A program made the translations under genes and the position numbers. Shown here in pieces: positions 6,039 through 52,900 of a stretch of 64,000 bases of DNA (position 1 is its first letter; the number at the start of each line of letters is the position of its first letter). The notes beneath the pieces are model-generated. The model saw only the letters and a list, made by a program, of their open reading frames with translations, had not been told where the DNA came from and ran no database searches. Source of the stretch: a virus; the IMG/VR virus record IMGVR_UViG_3300032242_000550, positions 1-64,000 of that record; one strand, 5' to 3'.

Positions 6039-6073
6039 AATGAGTATTTATTTGGTTAATAACCTGTTTATAA

Positions 6074-9000
6074 TTAAGACCAAGTGCCGGCTGATGTGTT
6101 AGCACCTATCGCACCTAATGGCATTAATCTAACATACGACCCTGCATTTATAGTCCAAGTTACAGGAGTGTTTTGATCCTGACTTACCATAAAGTTAACA
6201 TTACCGCCAGTAGTAACATCTATCGTGCCCTGTATTATATTATGAGTAAATGTAGCAGTATCTGCTACAGTCTGTGCCGTAGTGATTGCGGCGCCAGTAG
6301 CATTTTGACTCATCATGGTAATACCAGCAGAATATGCATCAATAGCTGTAGTTTTATTAGATATTACATTATAATTATGTTGCGCTACTGCTACACCACT
6401 ACCCAATGCTAATGCATAACTTAATACACCTGCCTTGCTACATTGTGAATTGAATAATATTTCATATTGATAGCGAGTGTTTGATGCTAGTGTAACACCA
6501 TTTGTTAATCCAAATAAACTGAGCAATGTATTTTTAGCATTACCAATACTTTGTTGAGCATTCAATACAAATACAAGTTGATTGCCACCTACCCCGTTAA
6601 CTGTGCTTATGCTAGCCCATGATAAGTTACCAGAACCATTTGTTAGTAGAATATTGTTAGCACTACCACCAGAAATGTGTAAATTAGCTACTGCGCCAAG
6701 TGTGACATTGCTTGTGTTGGCAAAATTAACCACACCGTTACTAGTAAATCCAGTTAGTGTACCAACACTAGTAATGTTAGGTTGACTATTTGTATAGACT
6801 GTGCCTGCTACTAATGCATTACCTACTTGCCCCGATACATTAGCTCCCGCTACACTGTTAGCTGTTGCCGCAAATGATACTTGTCCACTTACATTGGCAC
6901 CTGCTACACTATTAGCTGTCGTTGCAAATGCAACTGCACCTGTGACATTGGCGCCGGCTACTGCATTGGCTGAGGCAGCAACTGTTGCACTTGCTACAGT
7001 ACCGCTTACATTAGCACCTGCTACTGAGTTAGCTGTTGTTGCATATGCAACTGCACCTGTGACATTAGCGCCGGCTACGCTATTTGCTGTTCCAGCTGTT
7101 ACTGCATATGTTGCATTAGCTACAGTACCGCTTACATTAGCACCTGCTACTGCGTTGGCTGTTGTTGCATACGCCACTGCACCTGATACATTAGCACCAA
7201 CTACAAAGTTAGCAACTGCGGCATAATTTACTTGACCACTAACATTGGCGCCGGCTACACTATTGGCTGTATTAGCAATATTGCTATTACCTGTAATACT
7301 AATGCCCCATGTTCCGGTTGCATTAGTACCATCGGTCTTTGGAGCGCCTACTGTGTTATAACTGATTGTTACTGCACTACCACCGTTAAATGTAGCACCA
7401 CTAGCTGAGCCAGTGCCGCTATTATTGATTGTCAATGAATGTGTAACATTACCTGCATATGCCGCATAGTTAGCATTAGCAACTGTACCAACAATGTTAG
7501 CACTATTGATATTTGATATTTGATATCCATTACCAGAAAGATTAGCATTAATATTTCCTGTAATATTTGCACCATTCAAATTAGTTAATCCGGCACCGTT
7601 GCCTGCCAATGTATTAGCAGTAAAGTTGTTTGCCTTCAGGTTACCTGAATAGTCTTTTAGCTGTGGACCATATGTCATAGCGCCGGTGCTAGTATTATAT
7701 GTAATAATGTTACCTAATCCATCTCCACTACCAACACCTGACACATAGAACCCACCGTTTAAACTAATGCCTTGACTTCCACCACCCCAAATCAGATTAC
7801 CATCTGTTTTCATTTGGAATATTGTATTGTCATCGCCATCAGTAACAATTACATTACCTTTAATTGTAGTATCAGTTTCGCTGATAGTCAAATGAACATT
7901 ATCACTTGTTGTACCACCTGCGACAAACTTAACTACTTCACCTGTAGTGTCCGTACCAATTACTAAATTACCTTGATTGATAAACAAGTAACCATCATTT
8001 GCTGTTGTGCTATTGAATGCAGGATCGGTATAGTTGCTACCATTGATACCCATATCAATATAGTGATTGCCATCGTTACCTATGTCATTTACAAGAACTA
8101 AATCACTTGATGCGCTTGTGCCCGGACTATGGTTTTGACTTACAATTTGACTGTAACTATTAACATTGCTATCTACTTGAACATATGCATTTGGATAATC
8201 TAATTGTTCATTTATTAAACCAAAATGTCCACCGTTCTGTACATTTAAGAAATCTATATTAGCATTGGCAGCCAACAAATTATTAGTTGTTAATCCAGCA
8301 CCATCTGTGTTCCACGCATTGTTTGGTAAGTCATATAGAATACTTACTTTGTAACTTGAACTATTGTTGCCAAGAACAATACCACCCTGATTAATCTGAC
8401 TGTTACTCGTTGAGTTAGCCGCTAAGTATAATACTTTGCTATCTAAGTTAGCACTATTAGCAGTAGTTGTTGTACCGTTAACTGTTAAGTTACCAGTGAT
8501 TGTTAAGTTAGCAAAAGTCAATGTTGAACTTGTGTTTAAATCTTGCGGAGCACTGATATTAAAGTTTTGTCCACCTAAATCAGTGACAATGATTCTATTT
8601 GCAGTACCGGTTATGCTTTGTACACCAGTAGCGTCAATACCTACATCACCTACTGTAGCTGTTTGTGTTAAACCTAAACCAACTGTTACACTAGTAACCG
8701 CGCTGGTATCATTGAACGCTGTGTTTTGATATGTGTCATCAGCAAATGTAATGCCTCCGTTACCGTTATAAGTTCCAGTACCAGTTCCTCTAGTTGAAGT
8801 ATTTGGTAGAGTAAGACCTTTTGGTGTTATAAATGCTGATAGAGTTTTAGCATTAGAGCCAGTATTTCCTAAAGGTGTTGTATAAAAGTTTATCTGTGAG
8901 CCTGCATTAGAATCAGTAAAAGTTTGTGAGGCTGCAAGTTCAATAGTAGTACCACCTACAGGATATCCTGTAGTCCCGTAGCCAACACCGCTTAAGCGTA

Positions 9001-25745: not shown

Positions 25746-26651
25746 TTAAAAGCTATGTGCTAAACCAATACCAAATTGCTTAACATCATTAGCTGTACCA
25801 CCTGCGTCAACATTGCGATAAGCAACTAAAACATTTGTACGCTTGCTAAAAGCATAGTTAACACCTACGTTATATGCTTTAGTTTCACCTGCGACTAAAC
25901 CAGTCTTAGTAGCATAGCTGCCTTTTAAGCTAACAGCACCAGTAACTGGTAATGTTGCGCCATAAAAATGACCTTTAGTCTTAACAATACCGGTTTTATC
26001 TTCACTTTGAATAGTAGATAACTCTAAACCACCTACTTTACCACCCAATGTTACTACATTAGTATAGTCTGTACCTGATGCAAAACGTGCGGCTGCGCCA
26101 GTTACTGGACCTAATTTACCACCAAGACTCCAACTAGTAGCTTCTGGTGTAGCAGGACTTGTGTACATACTACGGTCATATGTAATAGCGACAGAACTAA
26201 AATTTGTAGCTAAATAAGCACCATCACCAATACGCTTGTCACGGATGTTAATAACATCTGGAGAAACAGATGCATATGTTGCACCTGCAAATGGATCAGC
26301 GTTTTTCATAGTGATATATTCGCTATGTTCTTTACGACCTAAATCAATACTACCAACTCTAGTAGAAATACCTATAGTGCTTTGGCGATCACCAAATTGT
26401 GTTGCAGCTCCTGCTTTTGGATCATCGGCTGCTACAGATGTATCAAGTATAACTCTAGCTGTTAAGCCACTGCCTAACTTTTCTTCAACTTTGATACCGA
26501 AACGGCTTGAATCATTAACTAGTGAGTTAACTTTGGTAGTACCAGTTTTTGTGCTATCAGCAAATTCGCTGAGTCTGCCATACACAGTTACCTGTGCTGA
26601 TGCAACCATTGTCGTTGCTGCCAATAATGTCGCTAATGCGATTTTTTTCAT
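25746..26651 (-). CDS. Gram-negative outer-membrane porin
   Basis: Signal peptide MKKIALATLLAATTMVASA/Q, VTVYGRL, SSRFGIKVEEKLGSGL, YAFSKRT, alternating beta-strands and C-terminal Phe (GLAHSF). Confidence 0.9.
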   Translation of the reverse strand: MKKIALATLLAATTMVASAQVTVYGRLSEFADSTKTGTTKVNSLVNDSSRFGIKVEEKLGSGLTARVILDTSVAADDPKAGAATQFGDRQSTIGISTRVGSIDLGRKEHSEYITMKNADPFAGATYASVSPDVINIRDKRIGDGAYLATNFSSVAITYDRSMYTSPATPEATSWSLGGKLGPVTGAAARFASGTDYTNVVTLGGKVGGLELSTIQSEDKTGIVKTKGHFYGATLPVTGAVSLKGSYATKTGLVAGETKAYNVGVNYAFSKRTNVLVAYRNVDAGGTANDVKQFGIGLAHSF

Positions 26652-27656: not shown

Positions 27657-27710
27657 AAAGGCTCCGTAGAGCCTTTATTGAGTAAAAAAATAGGGACCGA
27701 AGTCCCTATT
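27657..27710 (-). terminator. Tandem UNCG-tetraloop hairpins terminating the tmRNA
   Basis: Minus strand AATAGGGAC-TTCG-GTCCCTATT-TTTTT, then AAAGGCTC-TACG-GAGCCTTT. Confidence 0.85.
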
Positions 27711-27984
27711 GCTATTTTTGGTTACAAGGTATAACTACCTCGCTATCAGGCGTTTGCTGCCAATAGATATTGTGAATCGTTTGCGATTACTTTTTTTGCT
27801 TCTACGGCCGAGATACTCCCAACCCTAACGGCTTCTGCTTTGCCGAGCTGTCCACTCTGTTACTCTTTGCCCAATCGATCCTGTGTCATCCCCACCTAAA
27901 TATACATCATACACTTAGGTGGAGATGGCCGGCGCTGCCCCGGCGTCTTGAACTTATTTTACATCACTTCATACAGCAATAACT
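27711..27984 (-). ncRNA. ssrA: Circularly permuted (two-piece) tmRNA, alphaproteobacterial type; tag (A)ANDSQYLLAANA
   Basis: Minus strand order: T-arm GCCGG-GGCAGCG-CCGGC, acceptor 3' strand CATCTCC-ACC (27927-27918), self-complementary intervening segment, 5' strand GGGGATG (27893-27887; G3-U70 Ala identity), D-loop ACACAGGATCGA, tag ORF 27784-27746 with TGA TAG, and 3' pseudoknot GAGGT-A-GTTAT-ACCTT-GTAACCAAAA-ATAGC. The 5' end is approximate. Confidence 0.93.
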
Positions 27985-30900
27985 TCAATTGTATTTAGTA
28001 TTAAAATACTCTTTTAACCAAGGCCAATCATAACTTAGACGTAATTTGTCTAAATCACCATTGACTGATTCATAGTATTCTACAGCATCTATCGCACCAT
28101 TTATACTATATTGGGCGTAATCACCCTCACCCACAGTTGACCATATCTTTAATCGTTGTCTACTAACTTTACTATCTTCACAACGTAACTTAATAGCTTC
28201 ACGGAAACTAGTACGCCATGTGCTAAACTCATCAGTATTATACCTTGCCACACCACTATTCAACTCTACAACTTCATGTTCATTATCCAATGTAAAGTCT
28301 AACCCTTTACCCATATTGCTCAATGTAATCTGTCTGTTATAAGCAATCAAGGCTTGATGGCCGTATACCAAACCATTAACAGGATTACTTGCATAAAAGA
28401 TATAATGTTTAGGTATCTGTAATCTATCTGGTTGCCATGTCCAATCAAACTTACTGTTAACACGTAACTTAGCAAATACAGTAAACATCCATGAGGTACG
28501 GCTTGCATTTGCGGCAGCATGATAGGCAGCAACACGACCATTGACCCCATCAACACGAACAACACGATTCTTCAATCCTTTAGTTACATTCAATAAATGT
28601 TCATAGTTTTCATCGGCTCCAGTTTCACCATTACTTAGGAATACTATATCTAATGGCTTTGACTGTCCCATCTTAGTTGCTTTAGCTATATATGGATAAT
28701 CATACAACTCTTTTTCAACATAATCGTTAGCTTCTTTGGGTACAACAATACGTGTACCACCTACATTTGTAATCAATATGTTCTTTGATTCACTAGACCA
28801 CATGCTGATTGGTTCATCATTAATATCAGGAGCAATACAATTATCACTTGTTGTAAACACTGCATATGGGAAATTATATGTATGTTCTTTAAAGTTTAAA
28901 TGTGTATCTGCTTCTGTTACAAAACTAGGTGCAGATAAACGTTTTAGTTTCTGATGCTGATTAAAATTAATCTTCTCTATGTTCTCTAACTTATCCAAAT
29001 CTTCTACCAGAATACGTAACTTGTTTACATTAATAAAGAACGTGTCACCAAACTTCTGTTTATCACTAGGAAACACATGTAATTGTTCTAGTGAGAATGG
29101 ATCAACTATATAAGTAAAATCAAAATTACTGTAATCACAAATAGAACTACATACCCAAATATAATGATCTTTCTTAATACCCAACTCATATAGCATGTTT
29201 TTTAATGTGGTTAAGTAATCATTTTCATATTTGATTGTGTAAACGTTTTCACGTTTTGTTTTGTTTTCAATCAAGGAAACCATGTCAGTTAAACCATCGT
29301 TACCGTAATCAATTAGATATACATCATATAGGCAGTTACTAGCTATAGCACGTTTTGTTTTTACAAAGTTTAGATTGTTTAGATGTTCTATGACCTTTAC
29401 GTATTTTGTATCTTCTGCAAATGTTTCTTTATTAACCATAAACGTAGTACCCCAATGACTCCATTGTGTACCAAACACATGAACCATTGACATTTGCCAT
29501 GGGTTAGGATAATAGCTAAAATCAAATTTAGTATAATCTAATTCGCTGTTTAATATCCAACATAGTTCTGTTGTAGATTTGTTTATACAGCGATTGATAG
29601 TATCAACCCAACTGTTTAAGTATCTTGTCTTTTGTAGTGTAGGGAACTGTAATTTAAGTTGTTCAAATCGTACGGCAGATTCTTTATTACCCTTATCCAC
29701 AAAGAATGCATCTACTTGTTTAAACAGTTTAGATAGATATATTTCATCTAGTTTTGTATTTTCAATGAAGTTTATATCTCTATATCCTTCTTTATACATT
29801 TTTCCATTAACTAGATATGTTTGTGTTGTTTCACTTTCAGGGCTACCAAACGTATTAATATTGAATGCCTGTTCTTTAGTAGGCTTCCAATTAAAATCAA
29901 ACTTAGTATAATCAATATTTTTACGCAATGCCCAGAAGATTTCATCACTATGTTGTTCTATCAAACTATCTAATGTGGTTTCAATATAGTATTGAGGATA
30001 TTGTATTGCTTCAGAGGATAACAATATATTTTCTAATAATACAACAGTTCCATCATTGTTTGGAGTAACATATTTAGGACCATCTTGTAAATGAACATCT
30101 TCTAATAGTGTACCAAACTGATAGATATAAGGTGGGCTATGTATATCTGGATGCCAACTAAAATCAAATACGTTTTTATCAAACCCGGCTGGTATAATCC
30201 AATTGGTAAAATTTTGTTTAATTTTTGCTATAGGATAATCCATATATTTGATATCTGTTGCTCCATTTGCAACATATCTAGGACCACCTATCTTATCCCA
30301 TGTGCTAGGGAACTGATAGATATATGCAGGTTCGGTACTATCTGGATGCCAACTATAATCAAACTCTAGTATATTATCAGGTATATCCCAATTTGTTTTA
30401 TCAGAAACACGTGTTGCTTTAAGTATATCCATGTACTTAGTAGGTGTATCTGTTTTACAGTTTGGTGGAGTAAACGTTGGACCATCTGTTTTTTGCCATT
30501 GTGTACCAAATTGATATATTAGTGGTTCGTCATTTATATTTGGATGCCAGCTAAAATCAAACAGTGTGGTATCTAAGCCTGCAGGTACAGTCCAATATGT
30601 CATATCTTGTTTAACTTTTGCTGTTGGATAATCTATATATTTTACTTCAGTAGCACCTTCTACAGTAAATTTAGGTCCGCCTGTACGACTCCAAGTACTA
30701 GCAAATTGATAAATGTAGGGTGGTTCTGTATCATCTGGATGCCAACTAAAATCAAATGATGATTGTTCTACATTACCTGGGATCAACCAATTAGTAAATC
30801 TCCATGCTACCACACTTGCTTTAAGTGTATTAATGTATTTTATCTCTGTAGCACCGGGTACTACATATCTAGGTCCACCTGTTTTTTGATGTACGGTAGC

Positions 30901-32124
30901 AAATTGATATATGTAGGGTGGGTCATTAGGATTAGGTTCCCAACTGTAATCAAAACTATTTTGTACTACATATGATGGTATTTCCCAGTTATCCATACAG
31001 GGTTTACGTGTGGCACGTTCTTCCATGTATTTGTATTCAGTAGCACCTTCAACAACATATTGAATAGATATTTTATCTTCAGGTTTATTCCATTGATTAC
31101 CCCATGCATAGATATATGGAGGACTCCACGGATCGGGTACCCATGAATAATCTATACCATCACAGTTTTCTAAATGTGTAAATCGTGTACTATTAGGTAA
31201 TAATTTTGCTCTCAATGATTCATCTTCAATGAATTTATATTCAGTTGCACCCGGTACACGATATTCAACTGTTGGCATAATCTCTGCAAGATATTGAGTG
31301 TTGCCAAACATATATATAAATGCAGGCTCACGTGGATCTGGTCTCCAACTGAAATCAAATGAGTTTTTATCTATTGATTTTAATTCTGTCCATCTATCAT
31401 ACTCAGGTAATACTACAACTGAGTTGTCCATATACTTACGTTCAGTTGCACCAGGACAATGATATTCTAATGTAGGTTTTAACTCGGCACTGATATATTT
31501 GTTTCCCCATGTATAGATGTATGCAGGCTCACGTGGGTCAGGTCTCCAAGTAAAATCAAATGTATCTTTATCTACTGCTTGTATTTCTACCCACTTATCC
31601 CATTCAGGTAATAAATCTACTGAATCATTCATGTATTTTACATTAGTAGCACCTTCAACATGATATTCTACATAATGTTTAATTTCTGCTGGATAGAATT
31701 TACAACCCCACTTATATATGTAGGGTGGGTCATATGGGTTAGGTTCCCAACTGTAATCAAAACTTAACTCATTAATTTTGTCTAGTACTACCCAATTATC
31801 ATGTTTTATATTTTTTCTATGTAGTGGTTCAACATCAGCACGATAGATAATAATTTCACTATCTTGTGTTGAACATAACCATGTTCCACTATCTTTTTGA
31901 TATTGACTGGGCCATACGTTATTATGTTCACTAGTCCAAACTTCGTCATCGGGTAAGAAGTCAAAATCCCAATCCCAATCAAAGTTTGTATAGTCACAAT
32001 ATTCATTGATTATCCAAAAGTGTTCGGTGGTACATTGATTTCTAGCATGTGCCAAATCAATTGCATGTTTTTCTCTTGGGTGTGCGTTGGGTTTATTACC
32101 GTAATAAAATACATCTCTAAGCAT
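27985..32124 (-). CDS. Large repeat protein with degenerate GT-A-like glycosyltransferase modules
   Basis: 1379 aa; nine W/P/Y-rich ~65-aa repeats; C-terminal domain aligns by eye with 43824-44777 (RVDGV.G..AA..AA, N..NGL.YG, WR..FRE..K). Confidence 0.7.
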   Translation of the reverse strand: MLRDVFYYGNKPNAHPREKHAIDLAHARNQCTTEHFWIINEYCDYTNFDWDWDFDFLPDDEVWTSEHNNVWPSQYQKDSGTWLCSTQDSEIIIYRADVEPLHRKNIKHDNWVVLDKINELSFDYSWEPNPYDPPYIYKWGCKFYPAEIKHYVEYHVEGATNVKYMNDSVDLLPEWDKWVEIQAVDKDTFDFTWRPDPREPAYIYTWGNKYISAELKPTLEYHCPGATERKYMDNSVVVLPEYDRWTELKSIDKNSFDFSWRPDPREPAFIYMFGNTQYLAEIMPTVEYRVPGATEYKFIEDESLRAKLLPNSTRFTHLENCDGIDYSWVPDPWSPPYIYAWGNQWNKPEDKISIQYVVEGATEYKYMEERATRKPCMDNWEIPSYVVQNSFDYSWEPNPNDPPYIYQFATVHQKTGGPRYVVPGATEIKYINTLKASVVAWRFTNWLIPGNVEQSSFDFSWHPDDTEPPYIYQFASTWSRTGGPKFTVEGATEVKYIDYPTAKVKQDMTYWTVPAGLDTTLFDFSWHPNINDEPLIYQFGTQWQKTDGPTFTPPNCKTDTPTKYMDILKATRVSDKTNWDIPDNILEFDYSWHPDSTEPAYIYQFPSTWDKIGGPRYVANGATDIKYMDYPIAKIKQNFTNWIIPAGFDKNVFDFSWHPDIHSPPYIYQFGTLLEDVHLQDGPKYVTPNNDGTVVLLENILLSSEAIQYPQYYIETTLDSLIEQHSDEIFWALRKNIDYTKFDFNWKPTKEQAFNINTFGSPESETTQTYLVNGKMYKEGYRDINFIENTKLDEIYLSKLFKQVDAFFVDKGNKESAVRFEQLKLQFPTLQKTRYLNSWVDTINRCINKSTTELCWILNSELDYTKFDFSYYPNPWQMSMVHVFGTQWSHWGTTFMVNKETFAEDTKYVKVIEHLNNLNFVKTKRAIASNCLYDVYLIDYGNDGLTDMVSLIENKTKRENVYTIKYENDYLTTLKNMLYELGIKKDHYIWVCSSICDYSNFDFTYIVDPFSLEQLHVFPSDKQKFGDTFFINVNKLRILVEDLDKLENIEKINFNQHQKLKRLSAPSFVTEADTHLNFKEHTYNFPYAVFTTSDNCIAPDINDEPISMWSSESKNILITNVGGTRIVVPKEANDYVEKELYDYPYIAKATKMGQSKPLDIVFLSNGETGADENYEHLLNVTKGLKNRVVRVDGVNGRVAAYHAAANASRTSWMFTVFAKLRVNSKFDWTWQPDRLQIPKHYIFYASNPVNGLVYGHQALIAYNRQITLSNMGKGLDFTLDNEHEVVELNSGVARYNTDEFSTWRTSFREAIKLRCEDSKVSRQRLKIWSTVGEGDYAQYSINGAIDAVEYYESVNGDLDKLRLSYDWPWLKEYFNTKYN
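30055..31800 (-). repeat. Nine ~65-aa intragenic repeats D[FY][ST]WxP...P[PA]YIY...Y...GATExKY
   Basis: Counted directly in the translation. Confidence 0.9.
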
Positions 32125-32180: not shown

Positions 32181-32188
32181 TATAAATA
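32181..32188 (+). promoter_or_regulatory. T4-type late promoter for the plus-strand island
   Basis: Exact TATAAATA followed by an AGGA Shine-Dalgarno and GTG start at 32208. Confidence 0.7.
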
Positions 32189-32207: not shown

Positions 32208-33269
32208 GTGAGTGAATATACCAATTATGAATTTACCCCGGGCAAACCAATCAGAACTTATAATACAAATGGTACATGGAGAGATTGGAGCACCGATGAA
32301 TTAGTAGGTGCAAAATTAAACTATCTTACTGGATGGAAATGTGGTGCGGGTGTTGATAGTTTATTCATTGATATGGATGGTGGTGTGTGGACTGCTAGCT
32401 GTCGTGTAGGTGGCAACTTGGGTAGTGTTTGGGACGACTTTGTAGTGCCAGAAGATTGGATAGATTGTACTAAAAACGTCTGTAGTTGTGGTGCTGACTT
32501 ATTCATACCCAAAACTAGTGTTATAGAATTTAAACCGTTATTACGTAAAGGTCAAGGATTAGATGCTCAACCTGAATTACGTAATGATAACTTAACAGAA
32601 TATGTTGCTATGGAACGTACACATGCTAGTACACAGAAACAAATTTACTGGGAAATAGGTCGTAGATGTAACTATGACTGTAGCTATTGCTGGCCATGGA
32701 TACACAACAACACTGATCCACATAAATCATTAGAAGAACTAATGAAAGCTACACATTTGATTGAGAAAAAATTCACTAAGGGTGAAAGTGTTAATTTCAT
32801 TATCAGTGGTGGTGAACCAACTGTCAACAAAGATTTCTTAGATTGGTTACGTTACTTAAATGCATGTGGACATCATGTTAGTTTGCATAGTAATGGTAGT
32901 CGTTTACCTGACTATTACAAAGAAGTTATACATTATGGTGACTTAAATCTTAGTGTACATTATGAATTCTATGATAGAAAGAAGTTTGTTAAGGTAGTTG
33001 AAGCTATTGCAAAAGAAAAAGCAGAAAATGGTGATTGCGGACATTTAGAAGTTAAGTTCATGATGGCACCACATAATCGTGATGAAACATTAAGTCTAGA
33101 AGCAGAATTAAAAGAACTACCATACTTTAGTGATTACTGTACATGGGCTATTGTTCCTATTCGCGGTGATTTGAATAACAAAACTAGTGCGCCTGATTCA
33201 GGATCGGGTAGTGAAGTTATGGTAGGTTATACTAAAGAAGATTATATTTTATTTGGCGATAGAAAATGA
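32208..33269 (+). CDS. Radical SAM protein with N-terminal auxiliary Cys-rich domain
   Basis: CNYDCSYC, SGGEP, HSNGSR; N-terminal GWKCGAG...SCRVGG...CTKNVCSC. Confidence 0.9.
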   Translation: MSEYTNYEFTPGKPIRTYNTNGTWRDWSTDELVGAKLNYLTGWKCGAGVDSLFIDMDGGVWTASCRVGGNLGSVWDDFVVPEDWIDCTKNVCSCGADLFIPKTSVIEFKPLLRKGQGLDAQPELRNDNLTEYVAMERTHASTQKQIYWEIGRRCNYDCSYCWPWIHNNTDPHKSLEELMKATHLIEKKFTKGESVNFIISGGEPTVNKDFLDWLRYLNACGHHVSLHSNGSRLPDYYKEVIHYGDLNLSVHYEFYDRKKFVKVVEAIAKEKAENGDCGHLEVKFMMAPHNRDETLSLEAELKELPYFSDYCTWAIVPIRGDLNNKTSAPDSGSGSEVMVGYTKEDYILFGDRK

Positions 33270-38332: not shown

Positions 38333-39594
38333 AACTTTTCCTTAATAAAATCTACTACTTCTTGCTCTGGTCTACGTGACATTAGCAAGTTATAATTATG
38401 TTCTAGTATATATTTGTTTTCTTGTATTAGGTTAAATAACTGTTCTGTGGTATATTTACTAGATATATCTTCTACTAACTTAACTATTTTATCCATTCTT
38501 TTATGACAATCAAATTCTTCATCATAACTTTCATCCCATAATGTATCAAACGTTTTATATCCCAAACTACGTAAACGTTTTAATATATAAGGATTGCCTA
38601 TTACAATAAAGGGCATACCCAATGATAATGGTTTAAATGTTTTTTCTGTTAAAAACAGATTACTTGAATCTGAGGAAAATAATGTTTCTGTTGTTATGAA
38701 TATCAAATTCTTAGCTGAGAAATTATATTTTATATTATCCCAATGATTACTACTAAAGTCAGAGGTGTCAAGTACCCATGGTAAAGAACTTAACATTTCT
38801 GCAAAATCAGTATTATCTTTAATCTTATCAATAAACTGATTATTGTTATAGCTAACAATTTCATCTATAGAACGTACATCTTTTAAACTGGCATTAAAGT
38901 CCGTTAGTAACTTTTTATTATACATTTGATACATGAAATAATATCTAAGTTCTCTTGGAATACGATTCAAACATAAAAACTTTTTTAAATTAGGACTATT
39001 TATGTCGCTACTTGACGGTTGTTTAGTTGTGGTCATTCGCATCGCAGTTTCAAAATATTGCCAGGTAATCATTTTTATTTCATTATCAACAATATCATTG
39101 TTCATATTACCCGATATCAAAACTACATTACGTGTGTTAATAGATGCTTTAGCTAATTTATCCTTTAATAAAACATAGTAGTCTTGTGTATAATAATCAC
39201 TTTCATGTGCATCATTTAACACTAATAAACATTGTCCTGAGTTTACCGCATTAATTAATCCAATTGGCAGATGCTCAAAGAAGTTATAATTATCGGGTAT
39301 ACCCTTAATACCGTTACGTGAATGAAGATTACGCACAGTATTACCCAAATATCTAAATGTCAAAACATACACAAAGGGTTCACTAGTAGATAAAGCTTCA
39401 TGCATTGTAATAGCTTTAGTTGGTATATTGTTTTTTTCTAATACAGTTTGTAATGGGGCATGATAGTCATAATAACATTCTTCAAAAATGCCATTCATAG
39501 GGTAATATTTATTATCATATGAATTTATATGCCAACGCCACGTGGGCTGATAGTCTGCTACTATACCATCATATGCAAAATTAATTGGATTCAT
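38323..39594 (-). CDS. Hypothetical protein, GT-B / GT10-like C-terminus
   Basis: FLCLNR..R..R, ITTET, FLTEKTFKP...PFIVIG...LRSLGYKTF...WDESYD. Confidence 0.55.
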   Translation of the reverse strand: MNPINFAYDGIVADYQPTWRWHINSYDNKYYPMNGIFEECYYDYHAPLQTVLEKNNIPTKAITMHEALSTSEPFVYVLTFRYLGNTVRNLHSRNGIKGIPDNYNFFEHLPIGLINAVNSGQCLLVLNDAHESDYYTQDYYVLLKDKLAKASINTRNVVLISGNMNNDIVDNEIKMITWQYFETAMRMTTTKQPSSSDINSPNLKKFLCLNRIPRELRYYFMYQMYNKKLLTDFNASLKDVRSIDEIVSYNNNQFIDKIKDNTDFAEMLSSLPWVLDTSDFSSNHWDNIKYNFSAKNLIFITTETLFSSDSSNLFLTEKTFKPLSLGMPFIVIGNPYILKRLRSLGYKTFDTLWDESYDEEFDCHKRMDKIVKLVEDISSKYTTEQLFNLIQENKYILEHNYNLLMSRRPEQEVVDFIKEKLCK

Positions 39595-40798
39595 TTAATA
39601 AACTCCAATACTCAGGGAATGTTGTTGCAAAAGATTCATTACGATAGTCATCATGTAAATTGGTTACTTTAATAAATTCAGCTAAATTATCACTTGATCC
39701 TTCATTATCTAACATAAAAGCCAAGACTTCTTTAATACCAAATATTTCTTGTACATATGATAATGAATGTGCATCTAATTTTTCAACCTTAGCTTTGATA
39801 ATATTCTTAATATTAGTGGGTAAATTCTTAATGGACATCTTGTCTGGCCAATGTAATAGATTGAATTTTAAGTTTAATTTGAGATTTTCTGCATTAAACT
39901 TTATTAATTCATCAATATAAAATATATTGTACATACTTATGGTACAGTATAAACTCATTGATACATTAGATTTACTATTAGCTTGGTATTTCTTTATATT
40001 ACTTACTACCTCATCCCACTTAGCAGGATGACGTTGATATTCAAATCTAGGACCAATATCATCTAAACTTATGTTAAATTCAACCAATGCCATTTTATCC
40101 CAAACTTGTGATACAGCCTCATCATATATAGTTCCATTGGTATTGTAAAACAGTTCAATATCTAATTTTCTTATATCTGGATAGTTAGATAGCATTTCCA
40201 TAATTCTAGCATGTTCTGGTTGCATTAACGGTTCGCCACCATAAAATTCAATAATATGTAGATCTGGTATAAGTTCTTTAAACGTTTCAAAGTTCAGTTC
40301 ATTTTTAATAAACTTACGTTCTGCATACTTACTGAATATCTTAATAGTATGTTCGTGGTATTCACCTGTATCTAATGATTCTTTCAACCAATTAGAACTA
40401 CAGTATGGTCCACATATTCTACATTTTAAATTGCATAGACTGCTAAACTTTAAATCCATTGTGATAATTTTAGGATCTTGGTATCTAACAGGATACTTAT
40501 GTCCTTTATGACGATGCCATTTAGATACGTTTTCTCTATGTTGACGTAGACTGGTAATTCCAGCTGATTCTTCATCCCAACAGGCTTTACATGCTTCAGG
40601 CTCAACACCATTTAAAAAATCATTTCTAATTTTTTCCATTGCAGGCTGATAGAATAATTCTTGTATAGTCTTATCATGCAATGTTTCTGTATCAATCTCT
40701 GTATCTACTTTGTTAAGATTATACTTACAGCAAGGTGATACAGAACCACTAGGATTTAATACTATATTTGAGAAAGGAAATAAACACTTACGAGACAT
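39581..40798 (-). CDS. Radical SAM protein with N-terminal SPASM/twitch-like domain
   Basis: CNLKCRIC, YGGEP, NTNGT; N-terminal CLFPF...SPCC...CKACW. Confidence 0.9.
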   Translation of the reverse strand: MSRKCLFPFSNIVLNPSGSVSPCCKYNLNKVDTEIDTETLHDKTIQELFYQPAMEKIRNDFLNGVEPEACKACWDEESAGITSLRQHRENVSKWHRHKGHKYPVRYQDPKIITMDLKFSSLCNLKCRICGPYCSSNWLKESLDTGEYHEHTIKIFSKYAERKFIKNELNFETFKELIPDLHIIEFYGGEPLMQPEHARIMEMLSNYPDIRKLDIELFYNTNGTIYDEAVSQVWDKMALVEFNISLDDIGPRFEYQRHPAKWDEVVSNIKKYQANSKSNVSMSLYCTISMYNIFYIDELIKFNAENLKLNLKFNLLHWPDKMSIKNLPTNIKNIIKAKVEKLDAHSLSYVQEIFGIKEVLAFMLDNEGSSDNLAEFIKVTNLHDDYRNESFATTFPEYWSLLNESN

Positions 40799-42186
40799 TA
40801 AACAGCCTTACACATGTTGTAAAATTCAGTATATTCAGGGAAAGTATCTGTAAACTTCATACTTCTACGTACATCAAAATCATCAAACCACATCCAAAAT
40901 AATCGTCTTTGTTGATCTCTATCCATAGTGTTAGTTTTTATACTTTCACTTAAGGTACGTATAAAATCCATAAATTCAATCCATCTACCATATTTGTCTG
41001 GTACTAATGGCATAATATCTTTCTTAGTATCCATGTACTCTATACATTCATCAATATACTTTGCGAAATCAGGTGTCAATATAGATGGACTTTGATGGCT
41101 AGGGAACGTCACTACACTCTGTTTAATAGCAACTGGTCGTCCATGTTTATGATATAAACTTTCAGCATACATTACAAAATCTTTAATACTAGATATACTC
41201 AATGCATTAATTGCAGGCATAAATCCAAATCCAAAGTCTAGTTCTTTATGGCTCAATACTTTGTCAATGTTACTAGTGAATCTATCCCACTTAATACCAT
41301 TACGTATATATTCTGCTCTTTCACCCACACTTTCCATACTAACTAATATCTCAACATCAAATACTTCACTTAGTTTAGGTAGATATGTTAAGAACTTATC
41401 CAAATAATTCTTTGGTGTATTCATGTTAGTAACTATCCAAAAACTTACTTTCTTGTCAGGGGCAATAGCTTGTTTACTTGCTAATAACTTATCAACAAAC
41501 GTATAGAATTCTGGCATGATAAGTGGTTCACCACCAATAATACCAATACGTGTACAATACTTAACACCTACAGTATCAAACCATTCCCAAAACTTTTCAT
41601 TGAATATATCAGGTGCTTTGGGGAATTCTCTATCATATTGTTCTTGCGAGATACGTCCTAATTTGATTTCTTCAGTAGCCCATTGTGTGCTGTAGTGATG
41701 GTTACAATACATACATTTCATATCACACGTATTACCCAAACTAATCTCTAACATATATGGATGATCTGATTTTAATTTAGGATCGTTTATATCAGTAATA
41801 TTCTGTAAGGTGTCTAAAAATACTTCTTCACTATACTGTTGTTCAGGAATCTGTTTACGCATAGTCATATGACGCCAATATGCTTCTGGTGTATGTCTTG
41901 GACTAGTCATACCACTATCTTCAATGTTCCAACATGTTTTACAGTCTTGTGTTTTTACACCTTGAATTAAATCTAAACGGCTTTGTAGCATCTTAGGACT
42001 ATTAAGAAATGCATCTATCCCATGCGTTTTTAGTTCATCTTCAGATACTTTATTACTAGGTGTTCTACAGCAACTACGAAATTCTCCCCTATCCATATTA
42101 AATATAGGATAGTTCCATTTCAAATCACATATGGTGTCTAACGGACTAAATCTCTCAGCAGAATTATATATCGGTATTGTTTTCAT
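40798..42186 (-). CDS. Radical SAM protein with N-terminal SPASM/twitch-like domain
   Basis: CDMKCMYC, IGGEP; N-terminal CDLKW...RSCC...CKTCW. Confidence 0.9.
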   Translation of the reverse strand: MKTIPIYNSAERFSPLDTICDLKWNYPIFNMDRGEFRSCCRTPSNKVSEDELKTHGIDAFLNSPKMLQSRLDLIQGVKTQDCKTCWNIEDSGMTSPRHTPEAYWRHMTMRKQIPEQQYSEEVFLDTLQNITDINDPKLKSDHPYMLEISLGNTCDMKCMYCNHHYSTQWATEEIKLGRISQEQYDREFPKAPDIFNEKFWEWFDTVGVKYCTRIGIIGGEPLIMPEFYTFVDKLLASKQAIAPDKKVSFWIVTNMNTPKNYLDKFLTYLPKLSEVFDVEILVSMESVGERAEYIRNGIKWDRFTSNIDKVLSHKELDFGFGFMPAINALSISSIKDFVMYAESLYHKHGRPVAIKQSVVTFPSHQSPSILTPDFAKYIDECIEYMDTKKDIMPLVPDKYGRWIEFMDFIRTLSESIKTNTMDRDQQRRLFWMWFDDFDVRRSMKFTDTFPEYTEFYNMCKAV

Positions 42187-42883
42187 CTTTTAATAACTTT
42201 TCTAAAAATTGTTTTACTTTTGGTGCATTAGATATTAAATTATAAGGGTCACCTGTTATTTGCTTTTGGTATCTAGGGTTAAATTTAACAGGAATTCCTA
42301 AATACTTCTCCAGGTCATCTATTGCGTGTTCGTATCGTATAGTGTCGTATTTAATGTTTAATTGAGATAACATCGTATTAAAAATACCTCGCTGTTTATA
42401 TAACCATTCTGCATTACCCGTACGAACAATTTCAAAAGATGAATCTATTGGGTGCGGTTGATTATTATCAAGAGTATTCCATTTATTTGTATGTAATGCT
42501 ATTAAAAAACTTAACAAATGATGTTCTACATTTTCTCTCTGTATAACAATAAATTTAAAATTTAAATCAGTAAGTCTTTTAACAATATCGGCTATATAGG
42601 GTTCCATTGAATCAACTAAAAACAATCTCATTACTAATGACTGATCCAATCTTGCCTCAGTTAATCGTTCAAATACGTATTTGATTCGTTCTTCATATGA
42701 GTCAAATTGAATGTTTACAGGGATGATGCGTTTATTTTCAGAGATACCAATTAACTTAATTAATGTTTTTTCAGTAAAGGGTTCAGCAAGATCAATAGAC
42801 CCTATCGTTTGCGAAATCATCCCTGCTATATATTGACTACCAGTTCTTGGCAAGCCCAATAAACAGTATCTATGTGTGCTCAT
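42164..42883 (-). CDS. Sulfotransferase-like (Stf0-type P-loop) protein
   Basis: PSB-like GLPRTGSQY, EPF, 3'-PB-like IQRENV...LS, IRYE. Confidence 0.65.
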   Translation of the reverse strand: MSTHRYCLLGLPRTGSQYIAGMISQTIGSIDLAEPFTEKTLIKLIGISENKRIIPVNIQFDSYEERIKYVFERLTEARLDQSLVMRLFLVDSMEPYIADIVKRLTDLNFKFIVIQRENVEHHLLSFLIALHTNKWNTLDNNQPHPIDSSFEIVRTGNAEWLYKQRGIFNTMLSQLNIKYDTIRYEHAIDDLEKYLGIPVKFNPRYQKQITGDPYNLISNAPKVKQFLEKLLKDENNTDI

Positions 42884-43830
42884 GGTTCTTTAGTACTCAT
42901 TATGTCAAAGTTACAATGACACATTGTTTTATTACATATTACAGGAGTTTTAGGTACTATAAAATCTTCAAAGATATTGCCAATCTTGCCACCAACACGA
43001 CACCATCCACGGTATATGTCACCGCCCAAATCTACAATAATTTGTTCTGCACCGGCATAACACTTCCATCCACTCCAATCATTAGTCTTTTGACTAATAA
43101 ATCTATGTGCGCTAGATACAACTTCAGTGCCATCATTTTTAATCATCTTCATAGCACCACGATAATATTCAAATGATTTGGTATACTTAATATGTTTAAC
43201 AATCAATTCATGTTGTTTATCAAATATCTTCTTTTGAAACTCATCATAATCATACAATGTATCACCAAAGTCATGTATTAATGGTTGCAATGCCATACTG
43301 ATATTACCGATACCTTTAACTTTATTTGCTACAGCATAACAAAAGTCAAACTTATCTGGACTCATCATAATATTTACATGGGTACGTACATCATCATGTA
43401 ACACTTTTACTACCTGTACAAAATGATCCGAATCTGCAAATTCTGGATGAAAGCTTAAACATACGTGGTCAAAGTATTGTTTATTATCTTCCCACCAACG
43501 TAGTGTTCTACTACCGTTACTGATTAGTCCTACTTTGGCACCTAATTCAGTACAATGCTTACATATCTCTACAAAGTGTTTGTATAGTGTTACCTCACCA
43601 CCTGTTAATTCAAAATAGACTTTACGTGGGGCAACTTGTTCTACTATACGTGTAATAAACTCTTTAACTTTTTCTAGTTCAGGCCATTTAATATCACCTG
43701 AATGAAGATTCTCTGGACAATAACTACATTCAAAGTTACAAGTGTTACCCATACACCAATTGACTACAAACCATTCTTCATGTGTAGGGTTACTGTGTAC
43801 TAATTTAATATAATCGTGTTCCATTACCAT
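42880..43830 (-). CDS. Radical SAM protein with C-terminal auxiliary Cys-rich domain
   Basis: CNFECSYC, TGGEV, ISNGSR; C-terminal GWKCYAG...WCRVGG...CNKTMCHC. Confidence 0.9.
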   Translation of the reverse strand: MVMEHDYIKLVHSNPTHEEWFVVNWCMGNTCNFECSYCPENLHSGDIKWPELEKVKEFITRIVEQVAPRKVYFELTGGEVTLYKHFVEICKHCTELGAKVGLISNGSRTLRWWEDNKQYFDHVCLSFHPEFADSDHFVQVVKVLHDDVRTHVNIMMSPDKFDFCYAVANKVKGIGNISMALQPLIHDFGDTLYDYDEFQKKIFDKQHELIVKHIKYTKSFEYYRGAMKMIKNDGTEVVSSAHRFISQKTNDWSGWKCYAGAEQIIVDLGGDIYRGWCRVGGKIGNIFEDFIVPKTPVICNKTMCHCNFDIMSTKEP

Positions 43831-44777
43831 CCTTCTATTTTTCGTATTACATCCATCTCTTTTACTAATGGACCGAGATTATATTTATCAGCACTATAAT
43901 GACGCTTGAAGAACTTGCTTTGACTTCCATCAAAGTAATTCATCGGTAATCCCAATTTGTTATTTAATGCCGCACCCAACAATGTTGATTCACGATCTGG
44001 ATCACGATTCTCATGTTCTTCCCATAATACAGTATAGTTATCAAACCACTGTACATTAGCAGGATCCCATTCGGTGAGCATAGTCATATATGTACCAAGT
44101 CGTGCACCATAGATAGCCCACTCACCATTCTCTACATCACGTCCAATATTGTGCCAAATAGTTAAGTTGTTTAGGTTACGACTAGCAACAGTTTCTTTTA
44201 ATGCATCAACAGTGGGTTTTGCACCACGGTCAAGTACCATTTTTACTCCTTCACGGAAGCCAGCTCGCCAGGCTTGAAAAGGAGTGTAATTTGGATATGT
44301 AGTTGAATAGCAATCATACATTGCCCAGTATAGATTATCCTTGCTATCTAAACAAAAATCAGCAATACGTGATACATCACCTTCTGTTTGATGTTCATGT
44401 GTTTTCATTTCACGCACATATGTTTTTGTCCAACTACTCATTCCACCATTGCCATAACGTAAGCCATTAATGTTGTTGATTGCTTTCCAACGATATTGTG
44501 CTAATTTATATTTAGGATCTTTATCGGTGAAATCTAATTGTAGGTTAAAGAAACTTTCATTTGGCATATTGTCACCATCAATTAATATGAAACGTTCTGT
44601 ATCACTTGCTATACCGGCGGCTTTATGTGCCGCATCGGATCCTTTAACACCATCAACACGTTTAGCCCACGGGACCATGTTCTTAATTTTTAGCCAGAAT
44701 TCTTCTTTTTGTGGTTCATCGTAACTGAGATAGATACAATCTAAATCTGCTACATCAACAATATCATCAGAGTTCAT
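43824..44777 (-). CDS. Putative GT-A fold glycosyltransferase
   Basis: DCIYLSYDEP, VDGVKGSDAAHKAA, FILIDGD (DxD after a hydrophobic strand). Confidence 0.65.
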   Translation of the reverse strand: MNSDDIVDVADLDCIYLSYDEPQKEEFWLKIKNMVPWAKRVDGVKGSDAAHKAAGIASDTERFILIDGDNMPNESFFNLQLDFTDKDPKYKLAQYRWKAINNINGLRYGNGGMSSWTKTYVREMKTHEHQTEGDVSRIADFCLDSKDNLYWAMYDCYSTTYPNYTPFQAWRAGFREGVKMVLDRGAKPTVDALKETVASRNLNNLTIWHNIGRDVENGEWAIYGARLGTYMTMLTEWDPANVQWFDNYTVLWEEHENRDPDRESTLLGAALNNKLGLPMNYFDGSQSKFFKRHYSADKYNLGPLVKEMDVIRKIEGW

Positions 44778-49962: not shown

Positions 49963-52900
49963 TTAAGATACATCCGTATTTAAGAAATATGCTGCCATTG
50001 TTTCGCTAATTTGCAACGGATCGCCCTCTACTACATTGTAAACATTACTATTCCAAGTTACATTATACTCAGGTTCTGGTAATAAATTAGTAGATAATAT
50101 TCCGTATACTTCGGTATACAACGGAATATATGTTTGTTCTCCGGTACCATTTGCACCACGCTGTAATCCTGTAATAGTATTATTATCTAAATCTACTGTT
50201 GTAAATCTAATTTGCTCACCGTTAATATATAACAAGTTACCCATAATCGTAGTTATAACTAGTTGATCTCCTGTGCTTACCTGACTGGTTATTTCTAATA
50301 CCGGAGCTAAATCAATGACTACCACAGAATAATGACTAGAACTTACATAACTACTTGTGGTTGTATTATATACAATTACTTGAGAAATAGTGTTCTTATC
50401 AGCATTTAAACTTATACTTGTAACTCCACTAACTACTGCCGGTGCAATAACATTTTGTACTACAGTATCGGTAATTCTAGTTACATCTGCCACATATATT
50501 GTTTCATCTGTGTAATTTAATGGTTCAACTAACCAAGTAGTAGTGTTACTATTTGCTCTAAATACAGTACCAAAACCATTCTTGTTAACGTTTTGTATGT
50601 ATACCAATTCGTTAGGAGTTGCATTAGGTACCATACTAGTTATAGTAATTTTGTCACTAGATACAATTGGAACTAATATACTTAAATTATTATTGTTGTT
50701 CAAATACAATGATGCAGGAGGTACACGGTATCCGTTAACAGTGACCCATAATCTGTTAACATTGATTTGGTCCCAATAATTGTTAATTATGAATGATGTA
50801 TTCTGCCAGATATAACCACCTGAAACATATGTAGAAACATTTGTTATTGGTATATTAATCGCTGTCAAACTAGCTGAATATGCAATCTCATACAAATCAA
50901 CTTGGGTAGTATTAATTACATGTACATAATACGTATTGTTGTTTAATTGTACAGAACCAACTGTTCCGTTAATTCTTATTACATTATTTGTAGATAAATT
51001 ATGTGCTGTACTAGTTGTTACACGAACAGCAGGTTGTCCACCTACAGTAGTTACCATGTTGCCACTACTTGTTGATGTTATAGTATATACTGGACCACCT
51101 AATGTAGCACTAATAGTAAAATGTGTTGGATCTACTATAGAGTTAATATAATAAACTGTACCGTCAGTTAATATATTTGCAATACTAATTCCTTTAAATT
51201 GTACAGTCTGGTTAACAATAAAACCATTAGTAGAAGTACATGTTAATTGATTTGGTCGTACTCCGTCAGTGGATATTGTTGTATCCGTAACATACGTAGT
51301 AGCTAATGGTGTAGTAATTTGATTACTAATACCAGAAATACTTACAACAGATTTACCACTAAGATCATATTGAGTATTGAAATATTGACGATTGGTTAGG
51401 TTATAACTTGTTACAGCTATAACATCGTTTAAAGAAGCACCAGTAGTTAGTGTTAATACGTTGGTAGTATCATTGATAGAATACCCACTACTTAAACGTA
51501 TACCATTCTTCTCAACTATTGCATTTGTAGGATTATCACCACTTACATAGTTAGTTAAAATAAAGGTAGTTTGTCCTGCAGTTGCAACAAATTTCTCTGT
51601 TTCTGGTACTGTATATCCATATTGGATTCCAAAGGTCTCGCCAAATACAGTATATGTTAAATAGTCCACTGAGTCATCATATTGTGCCGCAAATACTAAT
51701 TTTGCGGTGATACCGTTATCAGTTATACCAAATGTATAATCATTAGTAACTGCAACTGCACCTCCAACATGTGTGGTTAGTGTTAATGTTGGACCACCTA
51801 ATGTAGATGAAATCGTAAAGTTAGTACCATCAACAATCGTTTTAACATAGTATGTAGTTAATGAACTTATTTGAGGGCAGAATATAGTGTCACTAAAGAC
51901 AATCGTATCATTTACTGCTACACCATTAGTAGTATTACATGTAATAGTATTAGTAGAACTAGAAGTACTTGTTATAGTAAGAGTATGTCCACTTACTAGT
52001 TTAGTACCGTTATGATATACTATAGGATCTGTCCACGGCGCTCCACTACCAATTTGAAGTTCTACAACCATTGATCCGGTATCTGTAGATAAAGCAAATG
52101 TAGGACCTGCTACACCATTTACATTGGTTGCTGAAATAGTAATTCTATTTGTTATAGTACTGATTGTTTTAACATAATAATGTGTATCTGCAACAATATT
52201 ACCAAACACACCACCTTGGAATACGATTTGGTCATTTAACGTAAAGTACTCAACATTTTCACATAAAATAGTATCAGTTACGCTATCTGTCTCTGTTGCA
52301 ATAACATTAATTGGTTGTGTACCTGGACGAATTAATCCGGATCCACTGTTTAGTGTTGCTGAATAGTTGCAATTTAAATATATTTCATTGAATCCAGTAG
52401 TATCATTAGTTCTGATAGGGTCTGCTTGTGAGTTAGATTTCTCTAATTGATAACCATTACCCACTTCATATACTTCTATCATTAAACTATTACCCATAGA
52501 TAACGGTGTAGCTAATGTAATTGTTTTTGTAATCCAATTTACACTAAAGCTAGGTGAATATAATCTTGTTGCTAATTGAGTTGCCCCATTAACATTATAT
52601 ACTGATAGTTGAGCCGGTGTCTGAATTAATCCATCAAAACTAAAGATCAATTGACCTGTAACAGGAGTAATTTGTTTTGTCATCACGTTGTACCCAACGT
52701 GTTGATATATATCAGCATCCCAGTTTGTGCCTGGTCGGGTATTAACAATCATGGTTAAGTTATCAGTAACTACACCTGGCACCAATTCTTCAGGGCCGTA
52801 ACCTGCAGTAAATTCGTCTCCAACAATATCATAAACTGTAGGTTCTGTGACAAATATATTGCTAGATGTCCACATGGTTCCGTTCGTACTCTTAAGTATA

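Follow-up and report, generated by a model that had tools for sequence, protein, structure and literature searches.

A 1379-residue jumbo-phage protein combining GT-A-like domains, a beta repeat array of variable length and a conserved lysine at the DxD position

Results and discussion

Domain organisation of the 1379-residue protein

We analysed a stretch of 64,000 nucleotides (the window), positions 1 to 64,000 of the IMG/VR virus record IMGVR_UViG_3300032242_000550. The source record is 155 kb long and is estimated to be ~45% complete, and the window encodes a large terminase and other phage genes. The subject of this study is an uninterrupted minus-strand open reading frame (ORF) whose product of 1379 residues, followed by a stop codon, is referred to as P0001, together with its 317-residue paralog P0002. 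Sequence comparison and structure models place P0001, a protein of several domains, in a virus-specific and hitherto unnamed branch of the GT-A glycosyltransferase (GT) fold.

The layout of P0001 is given in Table 1. A motif scan located the core FD[FY]xW, preceded by W-x5-6-DY, at residues 48, 742, 867 and 1001, and again at 1226 within the C-terminal domain. The initial annotation had proposed about four decayed modules, and we found four, at approximately residues 37-56, 731-750, 856-875 and 990-1010. In the secondary structure of the models, modules B and C and the C-terminal domain have in common a beta-alpha-beta-alpha-beta unit, an FDF loop and two strands, and this arrangement is shortened in module A and in the N-terminal module. 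DxD, the motif carried by P0002, was found in no GT-like copy of P0001. The whole protein is acidic, with an isoelectric point (pI) of 5.0 and a net charge of -55, and module B is basic (pI 8.9). Two parts of the layout recur in shorter relatives: the N-terminal module also heads ~300-residue relatives without repeats, and module C immediately precedes the C-terminal domain in many relatives of ~430 residues.

Table 1. Features of P0001, its paralog and its surroundings (coordinates are those of the window).
Feature	Coordinates	Strand	Basis or description
P0001, whole ORF, 1379 residues plus stop	27985..32124	(-)	Open frame and translation
N-terminal module, residues 1-109	31798..32124	(-)	Beta-alpha-beta, then FWIINEYCDYTNFDW; residues 55-103 predicted disordered
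Nine tandem ~66-residue all-beta repeats, residues 110-706	30007..31797	(-)	Motif scan, hidden Markov model (HMM), AlphaFold2 model (confidence score mostly >90)
Module A, residues 707-800	29725..30006	(-)	Short degenerate GT-A-like half module (FWALRKNIDYTKFDFNWKP); repeat HMM, secondary structure
Module B, residues 801-927	29344..29724	(-)	GT-A N-terminal half: beta-alpha-beta-alpha-beta, FDF loop, two strands
Module C, residues 928-1064	28933..29343	(-)	Second GT-A/nucleotidyltransferase-like domain; VIA-align
Linker and small beta region, residues 1065-1155	28660..28932	(-)	AlphaFold2 model
C-terminal GT-A core, residues 1156-1296	28237..28659	(-)	VIA-align, conservation
F1217-A1218-K1219 at the DxD position	28468..28476	(-)	Alignment; D-G-D in P0002
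C-terminal helical sub-domain, residues 1297-1379	27988..28236	(-)	Invariant W-R-T-x-F-R-E-x-x-K opens the first helix
P0002, 317-residue DxD-bearing paralog	43824..44777	(-)	BLASTP
Four radical-SAM proteins (SPASM domain in one)	32208-33269; 39581-43830	(+); (-)	Neighbour block; interleaved with sugar-nucleotide genes
Cytidylyltransferase-cupin protein			Neighbour block
HAD plus nucleotidyltransferase protein			Neighbour block
UDP-glucose dehydrogenase-like protein			Neighbour block
Methyltransferase			Neighbour block
Giant ORF	49963-63999	(-)	Runs past the window end
TATAAATA box	32181-32188	(+)	Faces divergent radical-SAM gene
Permuted tmRNA	27746-27978	(-)	Rfam RF04321
beta_tmRNA match	27687-28018		Rfam RF01850
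Gram-negative porin	25746-26651	(-)	Porin_4

The C-terminal domain and module C are modelled as GT-A folds

The AlphaFold2 model of residues 700-1379, built with 40 homologs as input, had a mean predicted local distance difference test (pLDDT) score of 83.5. All significant Foldseek matches of this model were GT-A proteins, with LH3 in first place (E 2e-5) and mimivirus R699, K4CP, PmHS2, WrtF and SunS among the others. Using VIA-align, the C-terminal core (residues 1156-1296) aligned over ~140 residues with Z 9.4-11.7 and a root-mean-square deviation (rmsd) of ~3 A to B4GALNT1, the Leptospira GT 6p61, STIV A197, WrtF, SpsA, the chlorovirus HAS (CvHAS) and PBCV-1 A64R. Taken with its helices, the core aligned with BcsA/HAS GT2 synthases over 204-212 residues (Z 9.7-9.9). 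Module C aligned over ~130 residues with IspDF, the beta-1,4-GalT 8xkd and mimivirus R655 (Z 9.6-10, rmsd 3.0-3.4). Modelling of the modules, which the initial annotation had suggested, therefore gave the GT-A fold for the C-terminal domain and for module C, as far as AlphaFold2 models can tell. The N-terminal G-x-G-x-R/K signature of IspD/RmlA-like sugar-phosphate nucleotidyltransferases is absent: the loop after the first strand reads L-S-N-G-E (S-Y-D-E in P0002), which is GT2-like.

The top Foldseek matches of the P0001 model (E 2e-5 to 3e-4) were tandem GT-A proteins, namely human LH3/PLOD3 (a GT plus an accessory domain), COLGALT1, mimivirus R699, E. coli K4CP, P. multocida PmHS2 and LARGE1, which like P0001 have at least two GT-A-like domains per chain. 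VIA placed positions 229-637 of the P0001 model on 34-534 of LH3, and also matched R699 and CHSY3-CHPF. P0001 differs from these proteins in that none of its domains has a DxD, and there is no detectable sequence similarity between them. In addition, the truncated half-domains and the beta repeat array of 7-26 units belong to P0001 only and are absent from the tandem GT-A proteins. Viral minimal GT-A cores were matched as well: the C-terminal core aligned with STIV A197 (2c0n, Z 10.9) and PBCV-1 A64R (2p72, Z 9.4), which unlike P0001 are single-domain proteins without a repeat arm. A64R is a capsid-glycosylating GT that depends on DxD and Mn.

Sequence searches did not assign the proteins to a known family. 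No Pfam family was found at E <= 1 for P0001 or P0002, and neither protein was recognised by PHROGs (no family at E <= 0.01) or by NCBIfam. PDB sequences, searched with the single proteins and with a family profile, gave no counterpart of either, and none of 35 relatives had a GT-family match (membership of CAZy GT2 or PF00535 Glycos_transf_2). The precomputed Pfam matches of some long homologs (SH3_CYT4, DUF6611, YdaS_toxin, DUF4185) were rejected as summed-repeat artefacts: none of the stretches passes by itself, and these families have no relationship to one another.

Repeats, modules and the C-terminal domain share one core

The C-terminal domain had been described in the initial annotation as a parallel of the 317-residue protein, with TVFAK in place of LIDGD. 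BLASTP agreed on both points. Residues 1158-1344 of P0001 aligned with residues 12-225 of P0002 at 26% identity (E 1e-9), all of the motif pairs quoted earlier lie inside this alignment, and FTVFAK (1214-1219) stands opposite ILIDGD of P0002.

The other modules were connected to this domain with profiles. An HMM of the C-terminal domain, built from 34 relatives, matched module B at residues 804-886 (profile positions 2-87) with an independent E-value (iE) of 8.5e-6, and the N-terminal module at residues 25-61 with an iE of only 0.045. The repeat HMM matched module A (731-775, iE 1.3e-4) and module B (856-901, iE 3.8e-6), and its direct match to the C-terminal domain (1223-1241) was weak, at iE 0.04. 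Using hhalign, the repeats aligned with a profile of C-terminal domains only over 19 columns (FDfsWxPD...YIf; P 1.9e-4, probability 47%). A further hhalign comparison, of the repeats with the full family alignment, was discarded, since the match consisted of repeats inside the N-terminal extensions of that alignment. The claim that repeats and modules reuse one core was thus borne out: by sequence, the shared core exceeds chance, and for the repeats the relationship runs transitively, from repeat to module and from module to C-terminal domain.

The repeat array

FD[FY]xW occurs at residues 122, 189, 256, 324, 391, 457, 522, 588 and 653, defining nine units of ~66 residues, in agreement with the nine ~65-residue repeats noted earlier. 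Their consensus is NWxIPxxxDxxxFDFSWxPDxxxPPYIYxFG...GPxYxVxGATxxKY. Identity to the first unit is 27-48%, and six columns are invariant across all nine. The AlphaFold2 model of residues 1-720 had a mean pLDDT of 82.8, with the repeats mostly above 90, and a single repeat is modelled as small and all-beta, with three to four strands. In these models the repeats themselves do not have a GT-A fold; at the sequence level, their counterpart in the modules is the beta4-to-beta6 stretch. The GT-A origin put forward for P0001 therefore holds in the form of whole, truncated and fragmentary GT-A-like copies, none with a DxD, and fails as a description of the fold of the repeats.

Structure searches with the array were negative. 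Foldseek gave no match in the PDB (best E 2.0), with cadherins and S-layer proteins as the only weak rows, and in BFVD it gave only two uncharacterised homologs from uncultured Caudovirales. A wide VIA search with the array was not significant (best Z 4.1). The chains matched by one repeat in this search were nearly all GT-A (B4GALNT1, CesA1, A197, FKRP, Chs1, R699, HAS and SunS), which is below significance and suggestive.

We found that the number of repeats varies across relatives, as had been anticipated. In 121 long homologs, the repeat HMM detected 7-26 copies per protein, and protein length followed 777 + 65.7 residues per repeat (r = 0.993). Even homologs 84-91% identical to P0001 carry 7, 9 or 13 repeats. 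Tandem Repeats Finder did not find a DNA-level repeat in the array, indicating that the array is old. The array is a clear example of how part of an enzyme fold has given rise to a repeat protein.

The composition of the array bears on what it may bind. Residues 110-706 have a pI of 4.7, a net charge of -33 and 17% aromatic residues, so DNA binding is disfavoured, and binding of carbohydrate or protein is compatible with it. We considered the possibility that P0001 glycosylates phage DNA at hypermodified bases, with the repeat array tracking the DNA. Phage GTs that hypermodify DNA are known, and the gene cluster around P0001 makes unusual sugar nucleotides. The strongly acidic character of both the array and the whole protein speaks against this role, as does the result of Pfam scans of the cluster, in which neither a hydroxymethylase nor a TET-like gene was seen, and we consider it most improbable.

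A fixed lysine at the DxD position

To describe conservation, we aligned 141 representatives with pairwise identity of at most 50%. At the position of the second Asp of DxD, K1219 is Lys in 137 of the 141 (97%), and the site reads [FNP]-[AG]-K. Seven residues are invariant (Y1254, G1255, D1276, R1308, E1309, K1312 and W1328), and six are nearly so (N1247 99%, R1304 98%, E1167 97%, H1240 96%, D1159 94% and H1256 93%). D1159, E1167, N1247, Y1254-G1255, D1276, W1303-R1304, F1307-R1308-E1309 and K1312 are common to the P0001 clade and the DxD paralog. The change at the DxD site is coupled to two others: where the DxD types have D-G-D, Q and Y-G-N, the P0001 clade has x-A-K, H (H1240) and Y-G-H (H1256). 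Y1254-G1255 and D1276 follow the DxD site in the order expected for the G-loop and the xED base.

Conservation within P0001 is highest in the C-terminal core. In the 22 most distant long homologs the mean identity of this core is 75%, followed by module B (71%), module C (54%), the linker (49%) and module A (45%). Forms of ~300 residues, consisting only of the N-terminal module and the C-terminal domain, are common. The nearest-scoring relatives outside the clade, gp348 of Ralstonia phage RsoM2USA and a protein of an alphaproteobacterial metagenome-assembled genome (MAG), retain VDGDN. The ancestor thus had a canonical DxD, and the Lys state is derived.

GT-A enzymes that are active without DxD have been described, including GT14, bacterial GT6 and WrtF (PMC7185993, PMC12595478). 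Some inverting enzymes of this kind (GT14) have neither DxD nor metal and use basic side chains instead (PMC7185993), and WrtF is a metal-independent GT2 fucosyltransferase in which no basic residue is used (PMC12595478). P0001 shares with these families (GT14 of the C2GnT-L type, bacterial GT6, WrtF) a GT-A fold without a functional DxD, and differs from them in having no sequence relationship to any. WrtF is among its best structural matches (Z 10.0-10.5, rmsd 3.4-3.5, 134-139 residues). A candidate GT14-like feature of P0001 is the basic residue K1219 fixed at the DxD position, for which a contact with the donor diphosphate is hypothetical.

The initial annotation had regarded the protein as catalytically dead. 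The label of a pseudo-enzyme fits the modules and the repeats, and probably does not fit the C-terminal domain. On account of the conserved Lys, the coupled gain of His residues, the invariant residues shared with the DxD paralog, the highest conservation within the protein and the existence of repeat-less forms, this domain is probably re-tooled rather than dead, a change of chemistry fitting the pattern better than decay. We predict that P0001 is a transferase that works without metal and carries a non-catalytic arm whose length varies, and give this reading a probability of about 0.5. Module C and the C-terminal GT-A domain would form the conserved business end, in which replacement of DxD by a fixed Lys and two gained His residues would yield a metal-independent glycosyltransferase (or a glycosyl-phosphate or alditol-phosphate transferase). 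This enzyme would share a phage glycan pathway with P0002 and with the products of the adjacent sugar-nucleotide, radical-SAM and methyltransferase genes. The remainder, comprising the N-terminal module, modules A and B and the 7-26 acidic, aromatic-rich 66-residue beta units, would be non-catalytic, and could serve as an arm that holds a polymeric acceptor or that anchors or spaces the enzyme. The data show the domain layout, the folds, the chain of homology, the pattern of conservation, the variation in repeat number and the co-occurrence with P0002; catalytic competence, the role of the Lys, the ligand of the arm and the glycan target are what we infer here. If the C-terminal domain is active, it would be a new way for a GT-A fold to work without metal, and would give access to a glycan pathway encoded by the phage.

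Several points weigh against this prediction. VIA-align gave equal fold scores for glycosyltransferases and for sugar-phosphate nucleotidyltransferases. D1276 as xED base and Y-G as G-loop are candidate equivalences drawn from chain order alone, and strong conservation also fits a pseudoenzyme that binds a ligand. Furthermore, the co-occurrence with P0002 described below lies within one phage lineage and may be mere shared descent.

Distribution of the family and a cultured relative

The search for long homologs (E <= 1e-3) returned 1803 proteins of 758-2414 residues. The C-terminal domain alone accounts for 824 clusters at 50% identity and is present on at least 599 viral contigs. In the ESM Atlas, the nearest clusters were all viral and unnamed (30/30); the nearest named one, Glycos_transf_2 at 0.86, serves only as a lead. 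The family architecture can be written as [N-module]-[0-26 repeats]-[0-3 modules]-[C-terminal domain], with the C-terminal domain always last. It is an abundant viral family without a counterpart in Pfam, PHROG, NCBIfam or PDB sequences, and it marks a widespread lineage of aquatic jumbo phages of 250-525 kb.

The search pattern matched at only six prokaryotic loci: two on 148- and 183-kb contigs of one MAG, two on 12- and 19-kb contigs in other MAGs, and two at ~30% identity on long alphaproteobacterial contigs. The neighbours of the alphaproteobacterial homolog (PutA, a hydrolase and an AraC regulator) are uninformative. The 148-, 183-, 12- and 19-kb contigs are in MAGs labelled Haliscomenobacter, Pacearchaeota and Fischerella and carry close homologs that are 40-53% identical and have repeats or modules; these are probably mis-binned jumbo-phage contigs.

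Among 50,697 records of cultured phages, homologs were found in Ralstonia phage RsoM2USA (MG752970.1) only. Its two genes, gp350 and gp348, lie two genes apart in a late region (5646-6599 and 8004-8705 of its locus, respectively), and both products are annotated as hypothetical proteins. The product of gp350 is of the P0002 type and is 40% identical to P0002, and that of gp348 is of the C-terminal-domain type, 29% identical to the C-terminal domain of P0001. Unlike P0001, gp348 has 233 residues as annotated, lacks repeats and modules and keeps VDGDN, and on this sequence evidence it represents the state before the switch to Lys. Within a few genes of the pair lie ORF356 and the tail sheath ORF359, whose products are confirmed components of the virion, and the pair provides a cultured system for a first test.

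P0002 and the pairing with P0001

Orthologs of P0002 (~317 residues, 75-94% identical) were found in 12/12 related records of 139-525 kb, and P0002 belongs to the core genes of the lineage. It is exceptionally abundant and uniform in metagenomes. At 90% identity it forms at least 8000 clusters; the listed matches are 83-97% identical, nearly all have 314-318 residues, and all are annotated as hypothetical. In the ten records in which both genes were located, the distance between P0002 and the repeat protein is ~10 to 35 kb. When viral loci were inspected within +/-10 kb of the C-terminal domain, P0002 was reached in 1 of 80. This pairing, which is seen again in RsoM2USA and on two MAG contigs, fits two transferases acting in sequence as well as an enzyme and its helper.

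The second of these possibilities corresponds broadly to the proposal of the initial annotation: all GT-like copies would be dead, and P0001 would assist P0002 as a multivalent scaffold, as a chaperone or as a ruler of chain length, comparable to COSMC and T-synthase or to the accessory domains of LH3/COLGALT1. The lack of a DxD in every copy, the recurrent company of P0002 and the varying number of repeats would all be expected from such a partner. There are known cases of a non-catalytic GT-A domain beside a catalytic one, the top fold match is LH3, and COSMC (C1GALT1C1), the T-synthase chaperone, is a precedent as a DxD-less paralog and partner of an active DxD enzyme (PMC7185993). However, COSMC has lost both DxD and xED (PMC7185993), whereas P0001 has changed only DxD, to a Lys fixed at 97%, and has kept the candidate base D1276, the Y-G loop and the R-E-x-x-K helix invariant. 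It also counts against a scaffold that the C-terminal domain is the best-conserved part of the protein. The RsoM2USA partner keeps DGD, so the ancestral pair had two DxD-bearing domains. As for the ruler, no support was found: across related records, the length of the repeat protein (855-2713 residues) does not track that of the giant ORF (5894-6753 residues) located near P0002. We therefore consider a dead scaffold possible but rather unlikely, and prefer the metal-independent transferase.

Gene neighbourhood

Pfam scans showed that the block beside the P0001 ORF contains sugar-nucleotide and tailoring genes (Table 1). Nearby lies the giant ORF, which has 5943 residues in the full record and is kept in 12/12 related jumbo-phage records. 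Its distance from P0002 is ~5 kb in the window and 5.5-9 kb in the related records. We note it as a candidate fibre, or as a candidate substrate of the glycan cluster.

This setting also raises the question of a structural role, in which P0001 would be a virion decoration or fibre with the N-terminal module as anchor, the repeats as shaft and a GT-A-like head that binds or modifies glycans of the host envelope at adsorption. The gene is in a late/structural region near the terminase, the ~5900-residue fibre-like ORF and a protein with a weak Peptidase_G2/IMC match, and in RsoM2USA the tail sheath and tube genes lie close upstream of the pair. The repeat number varies as in a shaft, and the repeat model resembles beads on a string, with the cadherins and S-layer proteins among its weak Foldseek rows. 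On the other hand, no PHROG structural family was matched, neither a signal peptide nor a trimerisation feature was seen, and the ~300-residue repeat-less forms cannot be fibres. ORF348 and ORF350 are not among the identified virion bands of RsoM2USA (10 bands examined). We regard a fibre as improbable.

A broader scenario joins the preferred transferase reading with the neighbourhood. A beta4-to-beta6 fragment would have been amplified into the 66-residue repeat arm of 7-26 units, and the parent domain would have moved from DxD and metal to Lys and His, possibly for a non-canonical donor supplied by the radical-SAM and cytidylyltransferase genes. With P0002 it would build a virion glycan, for example on the ~6000-residue fibre-like protein, as a phage counterpart of giant-virus fibril glycosylation. 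Taken as a whole, this scenario is speculative and quite unlikely to hold in every part.

No TATAAATA late box was found upstream of the P0001 gene on its own strand. The TATAAATA box nearby faces the divergent radical-SAM gene and not P0001, and in the window the motif is rarer than expected by chance.

Directly 3' of the P0001 stop, Rfam detected a permuted transfer-messenger RNA (tmRNA_permuted, 92.1 bits against a gathering score of 47), and a beta_tmRNA match scored 84.5 bits over 27687-28018. ARAGORN reported nothing. Further along the minus strand, the phage encodes a Gram-negative porin (E 8e-26).

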